A DNA stretch of 64,000 nucleotides from an uncultured Chloroflexia bacterium. Lineage in GTDB: Bacteria > Chloroflexota > Limnocylindria > Limnocylindrales > CSP1-4. Where the stretch lies: contig CAVYIM010000009.1 of the NCBI GenBank assembly GCA_963768655.1, positions 128,001-192,000 of the forward strand. Direction: 5' to 3'. A program made the translations under genes and the position numbers. Positions 10,810-55,008 of the stretch are shown piece after piece. The notes beneath the pieces were generated by a model. The model was not told the DNA's origin and did no database searches. It saw nothing but the letters and a program-made list of their open reading frames with translations. Position 1 is the stretch's first letter. Every line of letters begins with the position of its first letter.

Positions 10810-12004
10810 ATGGGCTGCACGACCATGGTTCGACTCGCGGGCGCACCGGCGTCGCGCGGCGGCGCTGCCGCGCCGGCCGCCGCCCCGACCCGAGACCGAA
10901 GGGGCCGTCACGATACTCCCGCCTTCCCGCCGTCGCCGCGCACCCAGGAGCCGGCGCCACGGCCCGCGCCGGCCGTGCCCCGCCTCGATCCGATCCTCGA
11001 CGAGCCGCCGGACGGCGAGCGCCACTTCCGGATCCTGATCGAGCAGGCCGCCGATGGGATTCTCGTCACGGACGGCGCGGGGCGGATCACCCTGGCCAAC
11101 TCCGCGGCATGCGAGATGAGCGGCTACGGCCCCGATGAGATCATCGGCCTGGACCTGCTGGACACGTACCTGCCCGAGGAGCGAGAGGCGGGTCGCCGGC
11201 GCCAGGCCCGGATGCCGGCGGGAACGGCTCTTCGATTCGAGCGCCTCCTCCGCCGCAAGAGCGGCTCGAGATCACGATCGACGTCAGCGTGGCCTGGCTT
11301 CCGAATGGCGAGTGCCAGTCGATCATGCGCGACATCTCGGCCCGCAAGCAAGCCGAAGACGAGCTGCGCCGGCTGGCCGGGGATCTCGAATGCCGGGTGG
11401 AGGAGCGTGACCGCGAGTTCGAGCACGCCAACGCCGAGCTGGAGGCGGCCAACGCGGAGCTGGCTGCGGCGAATCGCGAGCTGCAGAGCATGCTGCGTGA
11501 GCAGGAGCGGCTGCAGGCCGAGCTGGCTTACCGGGCGATGCACGACCCGCTGACCGGCCTGGCCAACCGCATCATGTTCGGAGAGCGTCTCGACCACGCC
11601 ATCCGAGTCGGCGAGCGCGGCGTGGCCGTGGTCTGGATCGACCTGGACCACTTCAAGGAGGTCAATGACATATTCGGCCACGACGTGGGCGACGAGATGC
11701 TGGTGGCGGTAGCGGATCGGCTCCGCGATGTGGTCCGCGAAACGGACGACATCGCCCGCATGGGCGGTGACGAATTCGCCGTCATTCTGCCAAACGTCAT
11801 CGAGACGGAAGCGCAAATGGTCGCCGAGCGAATCCTCGTCGCTCTCTCCGACAGGGACGCATTTCGACTTCAGATGGGCGCCAGCGTCGGCATCGCCTGG
11901 CAGCGCCCGGCAGGCGGCGACGTGGTGACTCTGGTGCGACGTGCCGACGAGGCGATGTATCGCGCCAAGACCGCCGGCGGGGCGGCATGGCGGTCACGTA
12001 CTGA
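10810..12004 (+). CDS. PAS-domain diguanylate cyclase (GGDEF); frameshifts near 11270 and 11980, start uncertain
   Basis: PAS (LIEQAADGILVTD..GRITLAN), coiled coil, HDPLTGLANR, IDLDHFKEVND, intact GGDEF with upstream RETD I-site. Confidence 0.88.
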
Positions 12005-18243: not shown

Positions 18244-19604
18244 TGGGAGGCCCACGGGTAGGGCAGCTGCATCCGGACACCGGACCCGGTCCGGTCGCAG
18301 CTCGCCAGCGCCTGCACCACGAACCTGTCGAGGTGCGCGTAACGGACGATGACCAGTGGATCGACCGGCGCCGGCGGTGTCGGCTCGGGCTGGGCCGACG
18401 CGTTCAGCCACTGGACGTGCTGAACGATCTCGTACGTCCAGCCGGCGTGGAGGCTGCCCGGCGTGAATTCGATCGCGTCGGACGTCGGGACGTAGGGGTC
18501 GATGCGGATGAGGCTTTCCGTCGGCGCGTTCACTACAAGCCCATCAACCGAGCCGTTTGGGCTGGAGATCTGCGGGTCGCCGGAGATCATGTAGAGCGGG
18601 ACCTTCGACGGTATCGAGATCCACGCGGTGCGCAAGTCCGCCGAGTTCCGTCCTCCCGACGAAGCAATTCCGGACTCGAAGCCGTCGGGCCAGCTCTCGG
18701 GTGTGCCGCCGTGTGCGATCCCGTACGGGAACAGGTCGAGCCGGCTCCAGTGCACCACCGTGTGCACGTCGACGTCCGTGACCCCGCCGCCGGCGTCGCG
18801 TGTGCAGACGGCCGACACCTGCAGGTCCAAGTCGGAGGCCGTCACCTGCGTCGGATCGGGCACCGCGCCGGCGGCGTACGGGAGGCCGTATCCCGCCGCG
18901 ACGGCGACGACCAGGGCAACTGCCAGGATCCGCCCGATCGGCCGGCTGTGCGAGAACCACTCCGCCATTTCCGCCCCGATCGCGGGGCGGAGCATCCACA
19001 GGCCGATGATGCCCAGTATCGGGATGGTGGTTGTCCCCGAGGGGGCCGCGAACACGGACTCGGCGCCCTGCACGAGAACCGCGGCGAGCATGAACTGGGC
19101 GTACCGCAGGGCCCAGCGTTGTCCTCGCGCGAATGCCCGGAAAGCCAGCACGTCGAGCGCCAGGGCGAGCGCGGCAGCCGCGACGAATACCGCCGCCCGA
19201 ACCGGGGTCAGCCCGGTCACGCCGATCCAGATCAGGATCACCTCGCTCATTGCCCCAGTGGCCAGCAGCAGCCGCAGCCGGCGGTAGCCCGGCAGCTTGC
19301 CCGGCGGCGAAGCGGCGGCCGGCAGCAGGACGCCGATCGTCGTGGCGTACAGGCGGGAGTGATAGGCGCCGGTCATCTCGTGTCCGAGCCTGCCGGCCTC
19401 CCCGAACGATCGGATTGCCGTCTCGACCGCGTCGGCAGCCGAAGCTCCCGCGACCAGCGCGTCCCGCCAGCGCTGCCAGAGGTGGCCGTACAACTCCTCG
19501 GCTATGTCCTCCCGGTCGGCGGCGGGCACACTGGAGCCGGCCAGGATTGCCTGGACGTGGGCGCGCAGCCGCGGCCCGGGGTCCGGGACCGCCGTCTCGC
19601 TCAT
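18240..19604 (-). CDS. Permease-prefix-1/HAAS domain membrane protein, PadR partner
   Basis: N-terminal REDIAEELYGHL..A.ETAIRSFGEAGRLG, TM helices, C-terminal extracytoplasmic domain. Confidence 0.75.
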   Translation of the reverse strand: MSETAVPDPGPRLRAHVQAILAGSSVPAADREDIAEELYGHLWQRWRDALVAGASAADAVETAIRSFGEAGRLGHEMTGAYHSRLYATTIGVLLPAAASPPGKLPGYRRLRLLLATGAMSEVILIWIGVTGLTPVRAAVFVAAAALALALDVLAFRAFARGQRWALRYAQFMLAAVLVQGAESVFAAPSGTTTIPILGIIGLWMLRPAIGAEMAEWFSHSRPIGRILAVALVVAVAAGYGLPYAAGAVPDPTQVTASDLDLQVSAVCTRDAGGGVTDVDVHTVVHWSRLDLFPYGIAHGGTPESWPDGFESGIASSGGRNSADLRTAWISIPSKVPLYMISGDPQISSPNGSVDGLVVNAPTESLIRIDPYVPTSDAIEFTPGSLHAGWTYEIVQHVQWLNASAQPEPTPPAPVDPLVIVRYAHLDRFVVQALASCDRTGSGVRMQLPYPWASQ

Positions 19605-39691: not shown

Positions 39692-40540
39692 CTACCGGTC
39701 GATCGGCAGATCCAGCCGGTCGCCCCATTCGGCCCACCCGCCGTCGTAAACGGTCACGTCCTGGTGACCGATGAGGGCCAGCGCGAAGGCCAGCTTGCAC
39801 GCCCCGATGCCGGTCGCGTCGTAGCAGATCAGGCGCCGCCGGGCGTTGACGCCAGCCCGCCGAAGCAATGCCCAGAGGTCCTCCGCCGGCCGGAAGCGGC
39901 CCGTGCGCGGCTCGGTCGTGGCGGCCGCGGGGACGTTGAACGCGCCGGGGATGTGACCCAGCCGGCGCGTCGTTCCGGCGTGGCCGGCATATTCCGACGG
40001 CGTTCGGGCATCGAGCAGCTGGATGTCCTCCGAGCCGAGCAGGTCGCGCACCTCGGCCGCGCTCAACCGCAGGCGTGACTCCATCCGCGGCGTGAACGTT
40101 GTCGGCGAGCGCATCTCCAGGGCCGTGGACACCGGCTGCGAGAGGGCCCTCCAGCCCTCAATTCCGCCCATCAGGATTCGTGCCGAGTCGAAGCCGTAGA
40201 CCCGCAGGCTCCACCACGCCCGAGCCGAGTAGGAGTTGCCGGTGTCGTCGTACAGCACCGCAACCATGCCGTTGCCGAGCCCGACTCGGGCCATCGCCGC
40301 GGTTACCCGCTGCGGACCGGCCAGGAGCAGGATGTTGCTGTCATCGTCGGGCTCGACCAGGTCGGCGCGCCAGTCGAGGTATGTGGCCCCGGGAATGTGG
40401 CCGGCGGCATATACGCGCCGCCCGGAGCCGTCCGGCCGCCAGCGAGCGTCGAGAACCTGGAAGCCGGGCCGGGCGATGTTTTCGGCCAGCCATTCGGGCG
40501 TCGCCAGCAGCTCCGGTCGCCGGTATCCGATGATTCCCAA
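39692..40540 (-). CDS. Tandem-domain rhodanese/sulfurtransferase family protein with active-site Cys replaced by Asp
   Basis: LDARW, YAAGHIPGA, RAWW, LLDART..EY.G, GHIPGA, VYDGGWAEW; C-domain loop reads YDATG; SD GGGAGG before TTG. Confidence 0.88.
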   Translation of the reverse strand: MGIIGYRRPELLATPEWLAENIARPGFQVLDARWRPDGSGRRVYAAGHIPGATYLDWRADLVEPDDDSNILLLAGPQRVTAAMARVGLGNGMVAVLYDDTGNSYSARAWWSLRVYGFDSARILMGGIEGWRALSQPVSTALEMRSPTTFTPRMESRLRLSAAEVRDLLGSEDIQLLDARTPSEYAGHAGTTRRLGHIPGAFNVPAAATTEPRTGRFRPAEDLWALLRRAGVNARRRLICYDATGIGACKLAFALALIGHQDVTVYDGGWAEWGDRLDLPIDR

Positions 40541-40595
40541 GCTCGACCCTCCCACGAGATGGGACTGCGCGTTCCGGCCTCTATCATACGGAGCC

Positions 40596-41840
40596 ATGGT
40601 CGGCCCATTCCTCCCCGACGACGAGAAGCTGCCCGCGATCCGCGAGGCTCTGCCGGCGACGGCCGCGGGCATCTACCTGAATACGGGCTCCTGCGGGCCG
40701 CTGCCGCGCGAGACCGCCCGGGCGATGGCCGAGCTGGAGGGCATCGAGCTGCGGACCGGCCGGGCCGACATGGCGTACTGGCAGGACTCGGCCGAGCGTA
40801 TGAACGAGGCCCGCGCGGCCGTCGCCGCGGTGCTCGGGACCGAACCGCGCCGGATGGCGTTGACCCATGCCACGACCGACGGCATGAACGTGGCGACATG
40901 GGCGATCGACTGGCGGGCGGGGGAGAGGGTGGTCACGACGTCGCTCGAGCACTCCGGCGCGCTGGGGCCGCTGTGGGCGTTGCGCGACCGCCGCGGAGTC
41001 GAGCTGGCCATCGCCGACGTCGGCAGCGGCGGCGACCCGGCCGAGGTGCTCGGCGCGCTGGATCGGGCGATCACGCCACAGACGCGGCTCGTCGCCCTCT
41101 CGCACGTGACGTGGGCCACCGGCGCCCGCCTCCCGATCGCGGAGATCGTCGAGCTGGCGCATTCGCGCGGCGCTCTCGTCGCGGTCGACGGCGCGCAGGC
41201 GGTCGGCGCGATCCGAGTTTCGGTCGAGGAGCTTGGCGCGGATTTCTACGCCGTGCCGGGCCAGAAGTGGCTGCTCGGCCCCGAGGGGACGGGCGCGCTC
41301 TACTGCGCGCCGTCGGTGCTGGATCGGCCGCGCCTCACGTTCGCGGGTTACGCCGCCTTCGAATCGCTCGACCTGGCCGCCAAAGGAAAGCTCTGGCCCG
41401 ATGCCCGACGCTTCGAGATTGCCGGCTACCACCAGCCTTCGATCCTCGGTTTCGCCCGAAGCACGGCCTGGCTGTCGATGTACGTCGGCCTGGATTGGAT
41501 CTTTGAGCGCGTCGCCCGGCTGGCCGGCGAGGCGGCGGCGATGCTGGCGGAGGTCCCGGGCGTCGAGGTCGTCACGCCGCGCGACCGCATGGCTGGCCTC
41601 GTGACCTTCCGCATCGCCGGCTGGAAGGCCGGCCCCGCCCTGGGCGAACTGTCGAAGCGGACCCTGTGCATCGCCCGCACGATCCCGCCCCTCGATGCCA
41701 TCCGTATCAGCGTCGGCTTCTACAACACAGATGCGGAGCTGCGCCGCTTCCGCGACGGCGTGGCGCTCGTCGCCGCTCACACTCCCGAGTCGATCCCGCA
41801 ACGGCCCACCATCCAGGTACTGCGCGGCGGGCTGGAGTAG
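40596..41840 (+). CDS. Class V PLP enzyme, cysteine/cystine lyase (C-DES/EgtE-like)
   Basis: YLNTGSCGP, LSHVTW.TG, VDGAQ, PGQKWLLGPEG, IRISVGFYN; no IscS/SufS catalytic Cys loop. Confidence 0.85.
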   Translation: MVGPFLPDDEKLPAIREALPATAAGIYLNTGSCGPLPRETARAMAELEGIELRTGRADMAYWQDSAERMNEARAAVAAVLGTEPRRMALTHATTDGMNVATWAIDWRAGERVVTTSLEHSGALGPLWALRDRRGVELAIADVGSGGDPAEVLGALDRAITPQTRLVALSHVTWATGARLPIAEIVELAHSRGALVAVDGAQAVGAIRVSVEELGADFYAVPGQKWLLGPEGTGALYCAPSVLDRPRLTFAGYAAFESLDLAAKGKLWPDARRFEIAGYHQPSILGFARSTAWLSMYVGLDWIFERVARLAGEAAAMLAEVPGVEVVTPRDRMAGLVTFRIAGWKAGPALGELSKRTLCIARTIPPLDAIRISVGFYNTDAELRRFRDGVALVAAHTPESIPQRPTIQVLRGGLE

Positions 41841-41956
41841 GGGCCGCCCAGGCGCGCGGCGCCGGGTCGGCAATTCCGGCTAGCCGGGCCGCCGGCCGGC
41901 GGCGACGGGGATTCTGCGCCGCCGAGCCCGCCTGCTGGTGTACCATCGGGCCCGGC

Positions 41957-42032
41957 GGGGGAGTAGCTCAACGGTCAGAGCACGGCTCTTATACAGCCTC
42001 GGTTGGAGGTTCGAATCCTCCCTCCCCTACCA
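41957..42032 (+). tRNA. tRNA with UAU anticodon (tRNA-Ile, AUA-decoding)
   Basis: Cloverleaf: acceptor GGGGGAG/CTCCCCT, D stem GCTC/GAGC, anticodon arm CGGCT-CTTATAC-AGCCT (TAT at 41990-41992), T arm GGAGG-TTCGAAT-CCTCC, A73, encoded CCA; -10 TACCAT at 41941. Confidence 0.92.
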
Positions 42033-42175: not shown

Positions 42176-42928
42176 CTACGACACGCAGGCGGTGTCAAGC
42201 TGCGCTCCGCTGCCGGCGTCAAGCCACACGACGCACGGCCAGCTCTCGCCATCGGGCTGTACCTTCGCGTAGTCGAGCCGCCAGGCCAGCCGGAAGGTCT
42301 GACTGCTCGGCGGTTCGAGCGCCCAAACAAGCTCGACCCGGTTGGGCTTTCCTCCGGCCACCTTCCTCGCCTGCGCTTCGCTGATCAGGTGTGCGGGTGC
42401 TGCTTCCGTCGGGCCGAGTGTTCGCGAGAACGACAGAACCGTACCGTACGCGTCCATGTCGAGCCGAATGGCGGGGTAGCTCGGGTCGATCGGGAAGCCT
42501 TCGATGCAAGTTGGGGCGGGGCAAGACTGTCCGGGCCGACTGGCCCAGTCCCCCTCCCAGCCCGCATCGGTGGGTTCCTGCCAGACGGAGTCGGGAGCAC
42601 TCAAGCCGACGAGCGCGCCGATCTTCGTCGCGCGCGCCCGTGCAGACGCCTCATCGAGCTGTGTCGGCGAAGGCGCGACAGCGATCTGATAGACCACGGA
42701 CGAATCAGTCGTGGTGGTCTCTACAAGGATCGGTTCGGCGGGCAACGTTGGAGTGGCGGTCGGCGTCGGCAGTGGCGCCGCAGTCACGGTCGGTGATGGA
42801 TATGCCGTCGCCTTCGAGGACGGACCTGCCGTAGGCTCAGTTAGGGTCGCACTCGCGACGGCGCCCGAGCACCCGGACACGAGCACGCACGCAACAACCA
42901 GAAGATCGAGGCGATGGCCCTTCGACAT
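42176..42928 (-). CDS. Hypothetical lipoprotein
   Basis: SD GGGAGGG, lipobox VSGC, Pro/Thr linker, C-terminal PepSY-like AWRL...VWLDAGSG. Confidence 0.6.
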   Translation of the reverse strand: MSKGHRLDLLVVACVLVSGCSGAVASATLTEPTAGPSSKATAYPSPTVTAAPLPTPTATPTLPAEPILVETTTTDSSVVYQIAVAPSPTQLDEASARARATKIGALVGLSAPDSVWQEPTDAGWEGDWASRPGQSCPAPTCIEGFPIDPSYPAIRLDMDAYGTVLSFSRTLGPTEAAPAHLISEAQARKVAGGKPNRVELVWALEPPSSQTFRLAWRLDYAKVQPDGESWPCVVWLDAGSGAQLDTACVS

Positions 42929-43248
42929 TCGCGCCCTCCCGCGCCGCTCTGAACGGCGTTCCGACGTCCAGGCCTCGGACGCGGTGACGATCACCCCCAA
43001 CCGAAGACGTGTGCTCGCAGCGGCGCCCCTGGGCGCGGTGGGCCGGCTCAGTGTAGGCTGATCCGGCTCTGGATGGCGCCCGCTGGTCGGTTCGCATACC
43101 GACCACTCTGTTCTACCAGCCTTCGGACCAGTGTCAGGGCCGGCGCCCATCACCTCAGGCGAGCTGGCGATCGCCCGTCACGGTGTGACGGGCGGCGCAC
43201 TGGATCTGCCCTCCACCCTCGTCCATTACCGCGTTCCCAGAGCACCGC

Positions 43249-53193: not shown

Positions 53194-55008
53194 GCGCCTC
53201 CGTCGCCCCGACTTCTCCGGGCCAGGCCGCTCCACGCTGGGGCGTCCAGGCCTCGCTGATCCAGCCTCGCCAGCCGGCCTTCTGGCTGTTCCTCGTGCTG
53301 CTGGGCATCGGCGGCTATCTCTTCGTCGACGAGCAATCGACGTTCAGCCAGCTGCCAACTGCCCTGACCCTTTCCTGGGGTCTGGTTCTGCTGTACGCCC
53401 TCCCCGTCTTCCTGATCGTCTATCGGCTCGATCTCTTCGAACGTGAGCCCAAGCTGATGCTCGCGGCCGCGCTCGTATGGGGCGGCGTCATCGCCGTGAG
53501 CCTGGCCGGCTACGCCAACGACGCCTGGCTCTCAGTCCTGGGCAAGGTCGCCGGCGCGAACTTCACCGCTGACTGGGGCGCGGCGGTCATCGCCCCCGTG
53601 ACAGAAGAGATACTCAAGCTGACCGGCGTGGTCGTCCTGTTCCTGATCGCCCCAGCCGAGTTCGACGGCGTCATGGACGGGTTCGTCTACGGCGCCATGG
53701 TCGGTCTGGGCTTCACCGTGGTCGAGGACGTCTCGTACTTCATCAGCGCGACGGCGGCGTTCCAGGGCGCCGATCAGACCGGGCCGGTCATCGACACTTT
53801 CCTCATCCGGGTCGTCGCCGGCGGTCTCTACAGCCACGTGCTCTTCGCCGGCCTGACTGGCATGGGCTTTGCATACTTCGTGACGCGGCGCCAGGCCGGG
53901 TTGCCCAAGCGCCTGTTCGTCTTTGGCGCGCTCCTCGTGGCCGGCGCCGGCGCGCACTTCGTCTGGGACTCGCCGTGGATGATGTCCGTTCTGAACGTTG
54001 CCCCCGGAGTCGACAAGCCGAGCACGCTCCAATGGATCGAATACGGCGTGATCAAGGGCTCGCCCTTCCTCCTCTTGCTGCTGCTGATGGTCATGTTTGC
54101 CACCAGGAGCGAGGAGAAGAACTTCCGGGCGATCATCGCCGGCGAGCCCGACCCTGAGGTCATCACCGAGGCGGAGACTGCATCCCTGGGCAGCCTGTGG
54201 TCCAGGCGCAAGGCCCGCTCGGCGGCGGGACGTCAACGCGGACGACTGGGATCGCGGCTGACCGGGCGGCTGCAGGCGGCCCAGGTCGAATACGCGATGA
54301 TCAGGAGTCGATCCGACACCCTGGCCGATCCGGCGCTCGAGGCCCAGCGACTCAAGATTCGGGCGATTCGAGCGCAACTCGCCGCCGTTCCGTTCGTGAC
54401 CGTTGCCGCCACACCCGGGGCTGTCGCGGCCGCAGCACCCTATGCCGCCCCGATGAGTGCCACCTATGCGGCCCCGATGTCCGCGCCCGCGGCACTTCTC
54501 TCCGCTGCGCCCGCGGCGGCAGCATCCTACCCGGCGCCGATGGGCGCGCCCGTTACGACCCCCGCCGTCGAACCCGTGCTCCCGGCGGAGTCCACGCCCG
54601 AACCAGCCACAACGCCCGAACCAGCCGCAACGCCCGAGCTGGCCGAGCTGGCCGGGCAGACCGAAATCGGCCGGGCAGACCGCCACAGCCGCGCCGGCTG
54701 CGACGGCCGCGCCGGCTGCGACGGCCGCGCCCCAGCCCGCGGCTCAATGGCAACCGCAGCCCCAACCCGCTCCGGCGCCGATCGTGCTGGCGCCCCCTTG
54801 GCCCCCGCCTTGGGCCCCGACTCACCTCGTGCCGCCGGGTGGCATGGCAGCGTGGAACGCCCCCGACCCATCACGCCCGCCCATGCTGATGCTGCCGGAA
54901 CGCCTCGAGCTGGTCGTGGACTCGCGCGCGGGGGCCTGGGCGTTCGTCCGCGCCGTCAACGGCTGGCGTGGTTGGGTGGATGGCCGCCGGCTGATCGACC
55001 GCGCCTGA
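53190..55008 (+). CDS. prsW: PrsW family intramembrane metalloprotease with Pro/Ala linker and C-terminal SH3b-like domain; frameshift near 54660
   Basis: DLFEREP, APVTEEILK, GLGFTVVED, SHVLF, AHFVWD; tail GAWAFVRAVNGWRGWVDGRRL in the other frame. Confidence 0.85.

Follow-up and report, generated by a model that had tools for sequence, protein, structure and literature searches.

A tRNA with a UAU anticodon as the predicted decoder of AUA in a tilS-less order of Chloroflexota

Introduction

How is the codon AUA read by a bacterium that encodes a tRNA with the anticodon UAU? The question was raised by a gene at positions 41957–42032 of a 64,000-nt stretch of DNA (the window) from an uncultured Chloroflexia bacterium (assembly GCA_963768655.1, contig CAVYIM010000009.1, positions 128,001–192,000). 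In the canonical system, AUA is read as isoleucine, without reading AUG, by tRNA-Ile2(CAU) carrying the lysidine made by TilS. TilS is regarded as an essential enzyme, described as conserved in approximately 98% of annotated bacterial genomes (PMC12514573). An earlier note on this DNA had proposed TilS-independent decoding of AUA, and had named a tRNA derived from tRNA-Val(UAC), a codon reassignment and a one-base error as alternatives. Here, we report that the locus very probably represents a clade-wide case of TilS-independent decoding. The tRNA with the UAU anticodon, hereafter tRNA(UAU), would be the sole decoder of AUA, and tilS and tRNA-Ile2 would have been lost across the order. Charging with isoleucine would be performed by an isoleucyl-tRNA synthetase (IleRS) of the IleRS2 type, and the wobble uridine (U34) is probably bare. 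The mechanism itself is the already known decoding of AUA by tRNA-Ile(UAU).

Genomes and samples

The genome holding the window (G000) comprises 3.37 Mb in 9 contigs, with 69% G+C and a completeness of 88.6% by marker genes. It was compared with a sample of its class (n = 121, including G000), in which the groups of the Genome Taxonomy Database (GTDB) are coded f1 (its own family, 36 genomes), f2 (same order, 5 genomes) and f3, f4 and f5 (same class; 39, 40 and 1 genomes). A phylum sample consisted of 201 Chloroflexota genomes. The class tallies include five unpublished genomes (G101, G123, G137 and G143 of f3 and G128 of f4), on which no claim rests. The unpublished genomes G186, G282 and G307 are among the tilS-positive members of the phylum sample.

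The tRNA(UAU) gene and its conservation

ARAGORN called a single tRNA in the window, a tRNA-Ile with the anticodon tat at position 34:

41957..42032, + strand: tRNA-Ile(UAU) gene, 76 nt, with encoded CCA (ARAGORN, Rfam, cloverleaf fold, ortholog covariation)
41990..41992, + strand: anticodon TAT, i.e. U34, A35 and U36 (ARAGORN, sequence; invariant in orthologs)

Rfam RF00005 matched 41957–42029 over model positions 1–71 of 71 with 67.4 bits (E = 5e-14; gathering score 29). The discriminator A73 is at 42029 and is followed by the encoded CCA at 42030–42032, so that the description of a complete tRNA with a UAU anticodon and its own CCA in the earlier note was upheld. The cloverleaf has a 4-bp anticodon stem, since C27 and U43 are unpaired. 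Besides C27.U43, the body contains G4-C69, G29-C41 and C38, all of which had already been pointed out as atypical, as well as C32 and a G1.U72 pair that had gone unmentioned.

Among 24 distinct orthologs from f1 and f2, nine of the 20 stem pairs had changed on both sides and none was broken. The anticodon loop C32-U33-U34-A35-U36-A37 followed by a pyrimidine at position 38 (CUUAUAY) was invariant in these orthologs. tRNA(UAU) is a real tRNA under selection. Within the genus, 23 of the 24 sampled species carried it, with 90–100% identity and TAT every time. The gene was also covered by contigs assembled from four public runs, namely two independent DNA metagenomes and two metatranscriptomes, and the anticodon was TAT throughout. 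Where they covered this stretch, the run contigs varied only at 41948, 41972, 41983 (position 27) and 41999 (position 43), with no variant in 41990–41992. A one-base error can thus be dismissed: every ortholog examined has TAT, and the contigs of the four public runs show no other letter there, neither TAC nor CAT.

A pattern search for tRNA(UAU) in the class sample gave matches in 31/36 genomes of f1, 4/5 of f2, 1/39 of f3, 0/40 of f4 and 0/1 of f5; a reversed-pattern control on the same 121 genomes gave 0 matches. The five f1 genomes missed by the pattern each had a tRNA-Ile(tat) with a variant D-arm according to ARAGORN (two located via BLAST, three via an acceptor pattern), bringing f1 to 36/36. 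The sole match in f3 (G118) was not a tRNA by ARAGORN and was discarded. By pattern search and ARAGORN, tRNA(UAU) was absent from all 80 genomes of f3, f4 and f5. The UAU anticodon had been described as known only sporadically in bacteria, which is true of the literature, but here it is fixed in a whole order and not peculiar to one genome.

Loss of tilS and of an inferred tRNA-Ile2

The tilS profile TIGR02432 scored above its cut-off in 78 of the 121 genomes of the class sample: 0/36 in f1, 0/5 in f2, 38/39 in f3, 39/40 in f4 and 1/1 in f5. Many of the f1 and f2 genomes are 93–97% complete, and some are assembled in 2–10 contigs. In a search of 41 relatives, G000 included, none scored above the cut-off either. 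Without the five unpublished genomes, the counts are 34/35 for f3 and 38/39 for f4. In control genomes, the model scored above the cut-off in 10 of 14, and the archaeal controls were below it. In G000, TIGR02432 and PF01171 yielded only a 22–23-bit match (22.7 bits), below the cut-off, and this candidate was rejected as the GMP synthase GuaA (778.6 bits). TiaS was not found in G000 either.

The site where tilS would be expected could be located by gene order. In the tilS-positive sister genome G049 (f4), an elongator tRNA-Met of the kind termed M1 below is followed by tilS (345 aa, TIGR02432 164.7 bits) and ftsH. On contig C7 of G000, the M1 tRNA-Met (19050–19124) is followed by approximately 180 bases and then by an ftsH open reading frame (ORF) with 82% identity to that of G049 over 500 residues and an FtsH score of 840 bits. 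Since the sequence of this interval is uninterrupted, tilS was deleted at its ancestral locus and is not hidden in an assembly gap.

ARAGORN predicted 51 tRNAs in G000, a few of which appear spurious on inspection (a 69-nt 'Pro', a 96-nt 'Asp' and an 82-nt 'Ser'). Just two have a CAU anticodon, one of initiator type (C3:539836) and one of elongator type (C7:19050). In the former, C1 faces A72 and the anticodon stem contains three G-C pairs, as is typical of a bacterial initiator tRNA. The genome also encodes tRNA-Ile(GAU) and a separate tRNA-Val(UAC) at C6:254986. Most genomes of the tilS-negative f1 and f2 had a single elongator-type CAU tRNA, whereas most of those in the tilS-positive f3–f5 had two. 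The sequences read from the loci fell into three kinds. M1 (GGCGGAG...CTCCGCT-A) was seen in f1, f2 and f4, and M2 (GGCTGGG...CCCAGCC-A) in f3, f5 and some f1. The third kind (GGGCCC(A/G)...GGGCCC-A, with C4-G69 and C5-G68) was present in 5/5 genomes of the tilS-positive families in which both CAU tRNAs were read out, and at no f1 or f2 locus.

Since AUG must be read and M1 or M2 is the sole elongator CAU tRNA in f1 and f2, both of these kinds are tRNA-Met. We infer that the GGGCCC kind is tRNA-Ile2 and was lost along with tilS, because its loss coincides with that of tilS and because it has C4-G69 and C5-G68, which we assume to be TilS determinants as in Escherichia coli. It was not found in G000, where the acceptor pattern matched only tRNA-Lys(CUU) and BLAST returned nothing. 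The whole order has evidently lost both tilS and tRNA-Ile2(CAU). The genome search that the earlier note had called for thus turned up neither of the two, and did turn up a tRNA-Val(UAC) elsewhere.

The alternative is that tilS and tRNA-Ile2(CAU) are present but were missed, through gaps or because the enzyme is divergent, with tRNA(UAU) as a redundant extra. The incompleteness of G000 leaves room for this, and redundancy has precedents: G152, G253 and G316 of the phylum sample, as well as Ktedonobacter racemifer, hold both tilS and a tRNA with the anticodon TAT. We nevertheless consider a missed tilS very unlikely, given its detection in 0/36 and 0/5 genomes of f1 and f2 against 78/80 of the sister families, the contiguous interval between tRNA-Met and ftsH with no room for the gene, and the failure to find an Ile2-type tRNA or TiaS.

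Some further observations concern these tRNAs and their loci. In the tilS-positive loci of f3, f4 and f5, tilS lies directly downstream of the elongator tRNA-Met and upstream of ftsH; that tRNA-Met is immediately preceded by an initiator tRNA gene in f3 and f5. M1 of f1, f2 and f4 has a conserved G1.U72 wobble pair and, in the lowest position of its anticodon stem, a mismatch of A31 with G39. Identical tRNA-Asp(GUC) genes occur in G000 at C1:1315-1391 and C9:16074-16150, and the 16-kb contig C1 could represent an unplaced duplicate or one copy of a repeat.

Meaning and use of AUA

ATA codons occur in the window at the two positions that had been reported, which were confirmed as real:

11670..11672, + strand: ATA codon, the I of VNDIFG in a GGDEF-type ORF; predicted substrate of tRNA(UAU)
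53610..53612, + strand: ATA codon, the I of EEILK; predicted substrate of tRNA(UAU)

The meaning of AUA was assessed by masking ATA as X and aligning the ORFs of G000 with 400 kb each of G049 (tilS-positive; 158 ortholog pairs, 52.8% identity) and G075 (tilS-negative; 187 pairs, 58.1% identity). The residues facing 162 ATA positions were I (61), V (28), L (25), M (11), A (9), T (7), R (6), with a few further residues. This profile was like that of ATC and ATT and unlike that of ATG. The log-likelihood at the 162 positions was best for isoleucine, with valine at −72.3, methionine at −81.1 and leucine at −114.8. The IleRS genes of relatives gave a second view: the 74 genes encoding more than 1000 aa (of 81) contain 52 ATA in 86,356 codons, and in 23 conserved ATA columns the majority residue was I in 13, V in five, an I/V tie in one, and T, A, L and R in one each; M was never the majority. 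AUA evidently still means isoleucine, and on the Codetta-like test the codon reassignment that had been considered is rejected.

A reassigned or ambiguous AUA would require that the tRNA, with its methionine-like body, is charged by methionyl-tRNA synthetase (MetRS), so that AUA means methionine as in many mitochondria, or that it inserts another residue. The nearest relatives of tRNA(UAU) without a UAU anticodon are indeed elongator tRNA-Met (77% identity, shared G1.U72 and A73), and M stood opposite ATA more often than opposite ATC in the comparison with G049 (8.5% versus 4.8%). Against this stand the deficit of 81.1 log-likelihood units for methionine, the match of the residue profile with isoleucine codons and the absence of any ATA column with an M majority among the 74 IleRS genes. 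Furthermore, C34 is the dominant identity element for MetRS (PMC12514573). Such a reassignment therefore appears highly improbable, and isoleucine is retained as the meaning of AUA.

In G000, 3,956 stop-to-stop ORFs filtered by G+C content at third codon positions held 1,777 ATA codons, or 1.58 per 1000, which is an overcount where ORF leaders were included. In aligned codons, the frequency per 1000 was 1.5–1.65 in G000, 0.40 in G049 and 0.07 in G075. No decoder of ATA other than tRNA(UAU) was found in G000. ATA use in the shared aligned genes of G000 was approximately 4 times that of the tilS-positive G049 and approximately 20 times that of the tilS-negative G075.

IleRS and modification of U34

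The genomically encoded UAU anticodon would pair directly with AUA, replacing the pair of TilS and tRNA-Ile2. Charging with isoleucine would fall to the only IleRS of G000 (C6:270247-273591, 1114 aa), which is of the archaeal and eukaryote-like IleRS2 type: it has the C-terminal domain PF19302 (95.7 bits) and no Zn-finger domain. Its close relatives (69–93% identity) were from genomes labelled Chloroflexi or Chloroflexota, Candidatus Limnocylindrales, Limnocylindria and 'Chloroflexi bacterium CSP1-4'. According to Taniguchi et al. (2013, PMC3575796), the tilS-less Bifidobacterium and Neorickettsia carry IleRS2, and a tRNA bearing a modified UAU anticodon is charged by eukaryotic IleRS.

Between nine IleRS sequences from tilS-negative and five from tilS-positive genomes, just five alignment positions were fixed for different residues. 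Two of these are in the C-terminal domain on the anticodon side: position 1030 (D in tilS-negative versus L) and position 1036 (R versus H). The two IleRS sequences from f27, a family of the phylum sample described below, have I and R at position 1030 and R and H at position 1036. These differences are a lead only, and none can be linked to a contact with the wobble base.

In G000, MnmG gave no match and MnmE none above the cut-off, the only MnmE matches being in a 565-aa ORF with two GTPase domains; MnmA was present. The pathway for xm5-type modification of U34 (xm5U34) thus seems to be missing from this genome, judging by its gene content. Since neither MnmE nor MnmG was found, U34 probably carries no xm5 group. 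AUG would then probably be spared through competition by elongator tRNA-Met(CAU) and through the weakness of U.G wobble pairing when U34 is bare, by analogy with Mycoplasma mobile and a Bacillus subtilis suppressor tRNA discussed below. A second mnmA/trmU-like region was seen near a contig end (C7:299550-300621), split over three reading frames (202.6, 49.4 and 29.4 bits). It may be a pseudogene or reflect assembly frameshifts.

Origin of the tRNA body and other cases in the phylum

In a tree with the anticodon masked, the UAU tRNAs of f1 and f2 formed one clade (ultrafast bootstrap 93) beside the M1 tRNA-Met (bootstrap 67). The identity to tRNA(UAU) was 77% for M1 of a sister family, 69% for the M1 of G000 itself, 66% for tRNA-Ile(GAU) and 64% for tRNA-Val(UAC). 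Ile2-type tRNAs reached approximately 60% among the matches listed, and others were lower. A derivation from tRNA-Val(UAC), for which C38 and A73 had been cited, can therefore be set aside: that tRNA exists separately in G000 and is less similar than tRNA-Met (64% versus 77%). In the approximately unbiased (AU) test, the tree joining the UAU tRNAs with M1 was the best (lnL −2787.6). Trees joining them with the Ile2 type (21.6 units worse, p = 0.167) or with tRNA-Ile(GAU) (27.3 units worse, p = 0.091) were not rejected. Derivation of the body from elongator tRNA-Met is thus favoured by these comparisons but not established.

In the phylum sample, tilS was above the cut-off in 183 of the 201 genomes. 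The 18 without it were eight of f1 (including G000), one of f2, all six of family f27 and the single genomes G198, G266 and G290. All six f27 genomes (G278, G238, G181, G254, G270 and G286) had a tRNA(UAU), with a GGGCCCG acceptor stem, A38 and an Ile2-like body. By its gene content, f27 evidently is an independent replacement of TilS within the phylum, by the route proposed earlier (PMC3575796). Position 38 is A in tRNA-Met, in Ile2-type tRNAs and in the f27 lineage.

These observations can be joined in a tentative scenario, which we consider possible though not the likelier outcome. The AUA decoder of the order would be a duplicated elongator tRNA-Met, in which the anticodon changed from CAU to UAU and the identity from methionine to isoleucine under an IleRS2 that accepts U34. 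The fixed pyrimidine at position 38 (C32 with C38 or U38) would tune the bare U34 to AUA and not AUG where MnmE and MnmG are lacking. The f27 lineage would have taken the ordinary route, a change of C34 to U in an Ile2-like body. TilS would then have been replaced in two different ways within one phylum, as in a natural experiment.

Genomic context of the tRNA(UAU) gene

The upstream neighbourhood of the gene contains the following features:

40236..41840, + strand: class V aminotransferase or cysteine desulfurase-like ORF, the upstream neighbour (NCBIfam SufS-family, 131.7 bits, below cut-off)
41941..41946, + strand: putative -10 hexamer TACCAT, 10 nt 5' of the mature tRNA end (inferred promoter element)

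In an alignment of the upstream regions, the 3' end of the aminotransferase ORF was syntenic with tRNA(UAU) within the genus. Most of 18 aligned relatives, members of other genera among them, have a TAnnAT hexamer at this same distance, within the motif GGTGTAC(G/C)ATC. A simple scan for two-hexamer sigma-70 promoters and a terminator scan detected no promoter and no terminator around the gene. Of the suggestion that the tRNA has its own -10 element, the hexamer TACCAT and its conservation in relatives therefore stand, but the two-hexamer scan did not recover a promoter. Downstream, an ORF on the minus strand (42176-43153) encodes a Pro/Thr/Ala-rich protein of 325 aa with a hydrophobic N-terminal stretch; it matched no NCBIfam family.

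This context bears on whether tRNA(UAU) could be an accessory tRNA that belongs to a phage or other mobile element and does not take part in core decoding. The downstream ORF without a family match would be compatible with such an origin, as would the two copies of the tRNA in the genus members G024 and G058 and the inclusion of a TAT tRNA in a phage-like tRNA array of G266. Nevertheless, the tRNA forms one clade over two families (bootstrap 93, as above), keeps its place beside the aminotransferase gene in the genus together with a conserved promoter-like motif, and has a distribution opposite to that of tilS in nearly all genomes sampled, and no other decoder of ATA was found. We regard an accessory role as extremely unlikely.

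The array itself (G266:C296:415-1441) comprises ten tRNA genes in approximately 735 bases of an 8.6-kb contig of the tilS-less, fragmented assembly G266. They are Thr, Val, Arg, Leu, Leu, Asn, a degenerate Ile-tat, Leu, Gly and others.

Discussion

TilS-independent decoding of AUA, as the earlier note had proposed, was borne out by the absence of tilS, the empty syntenic site, the lack of a third CAU tRNA and the isoleucine meaning of AUA. Several observations weigh against this interpretation or limit it. No UAU tRNA was found in G012 of the genus or in G029 of f2, both of which are fragmented assemblies, and the tRNA-bearing contigs in the RNA libraries are no proof of transcription. G000 is only 88.6% complete, so for this single genome the absence of tilS is judged from the pattern in the clade and from synteny. 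A pyrimidine, C or U, occupies position 38 in place of the A38 of other isoleucine tRNAs, and the body is similar to tRNA-Met, so that the isoleucine identity is deduced from the anticodon together with the codon evidence.

The synthetase, too, gives reason for caution. Full-length IleRS2 homologues (42–59% identity) are encoded in the tilS-positive sister families, and likewise in f2 and f27, which indicates that IleRS2 is older than the loss of tilS. IleRS2 also occurs in nearly half of bacteria (PMC13752280). Being so widespread, and present in the tilS-positive sisters, IleRS2 may permit the loss of tilS but is neither sufficient for it nor explains it. The IleRS2 of P. megaterium is more stringent towards the anticodon than IleRS1 (PMC13752280), and efficient charging of a UAU tRNA is therefore not guaranteed.

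Natural exceptions to the presence of tilS comprise nine species in three clades, Tenericutes, Bifidobacterium and Neorickettsia, in the survey of Taniguchi et al. (PMC3575796). Mycoplasma mobile resembles the present case in having no tilS, a UAU tRNA that reads AUA as isoleucine and two CAU tRNAs. It uses an IleRS1, in which Arg865 of the Zn-binding domain confers recognition of UAU (PMC3575796), whereas the enzyme found here is an IleRS2 without a Zn-binding domain. The unmodified U34 and the discrimination on the ribosome were measured in M. mobile (PMC3575796), and are proposed here from gene content and analogy. M. mobile is also a small-genome Tenericute, in contrast to the 3.4-Mb, 69% G+C genome reported here, whose relatives are environmental metagenome assemblies. 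The closest mechanistic match is with Bifidobacterium and Neorickettsia, which have no tilS, a UAU tRNA and an IleRS2 (PMC3575796); they belong to other phyla, represent independent events and are known from their genes, as is the present case.

Recruitment of an existing tRNA by a single anticodon change has been observed in B. subtilis, where tRNA-Ile1(UAU) suppressed a tilS deletion (Kohrer et al. 2014, PMC3919564). Its U34 was unmodified, and it bound AUA strongly and AUG weakly. That suppressor was selected in the laboratory with tRNA-Ile1(GAU) as the donor (PMC3919564), whereas tRNA(UAU) is natural and order-wide and has a body nearest to tRNA-Met. Unlike the suppressor, a tRNA derived from such a body would require a switch of amino acid identity. 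Work by Fabret et al. in 2011 reportedly concerns the tilS-deletion suppressor tRNA-Ile1(UAU) as well.

The canonical system, kept by the sister families, performs the same job with a modified C at the wobble position, whereas the order studied here has a U, no TilS and no CAU-type isoleucine tRNA. Within the phylum, K. racemifer has a tRNA with the anticodon TAT, but also tilS and four CAT tRNAs (PMC3575796, Supplementary Table S1). Decoding of AUA would accordingly be redundant there, with nothing replaced.

Among the papers listed (15 per search), our literature searches showed none on the loss of tilS in Chloroflexota. One further Tenericute exception, a deep-sea Spiroplasma, is said to exist. 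We did not find in print a tilS-less order whose sisters are tilS-positive and whose tilS locus is empty, a second such event in the same phylum, or a body resembling tRNA-Met in which position 38 is always a pyrimidine.

Very probably, then, an order of high-G+C Chloroflexota, with relatives from peat, soil, sediment and lakes, joins as a whole the bacteria that decode AUA without TilS. It offers a comparative system for asking what permits the loss of TilS, how a tRNA with U34 avoids AUG and whether a tRNA can change its identity naturally via the anticodon. These genomes will be scored too low wherever genome annotation or completeness estimation relies on the presence of tilS and a third CAU tRNA.

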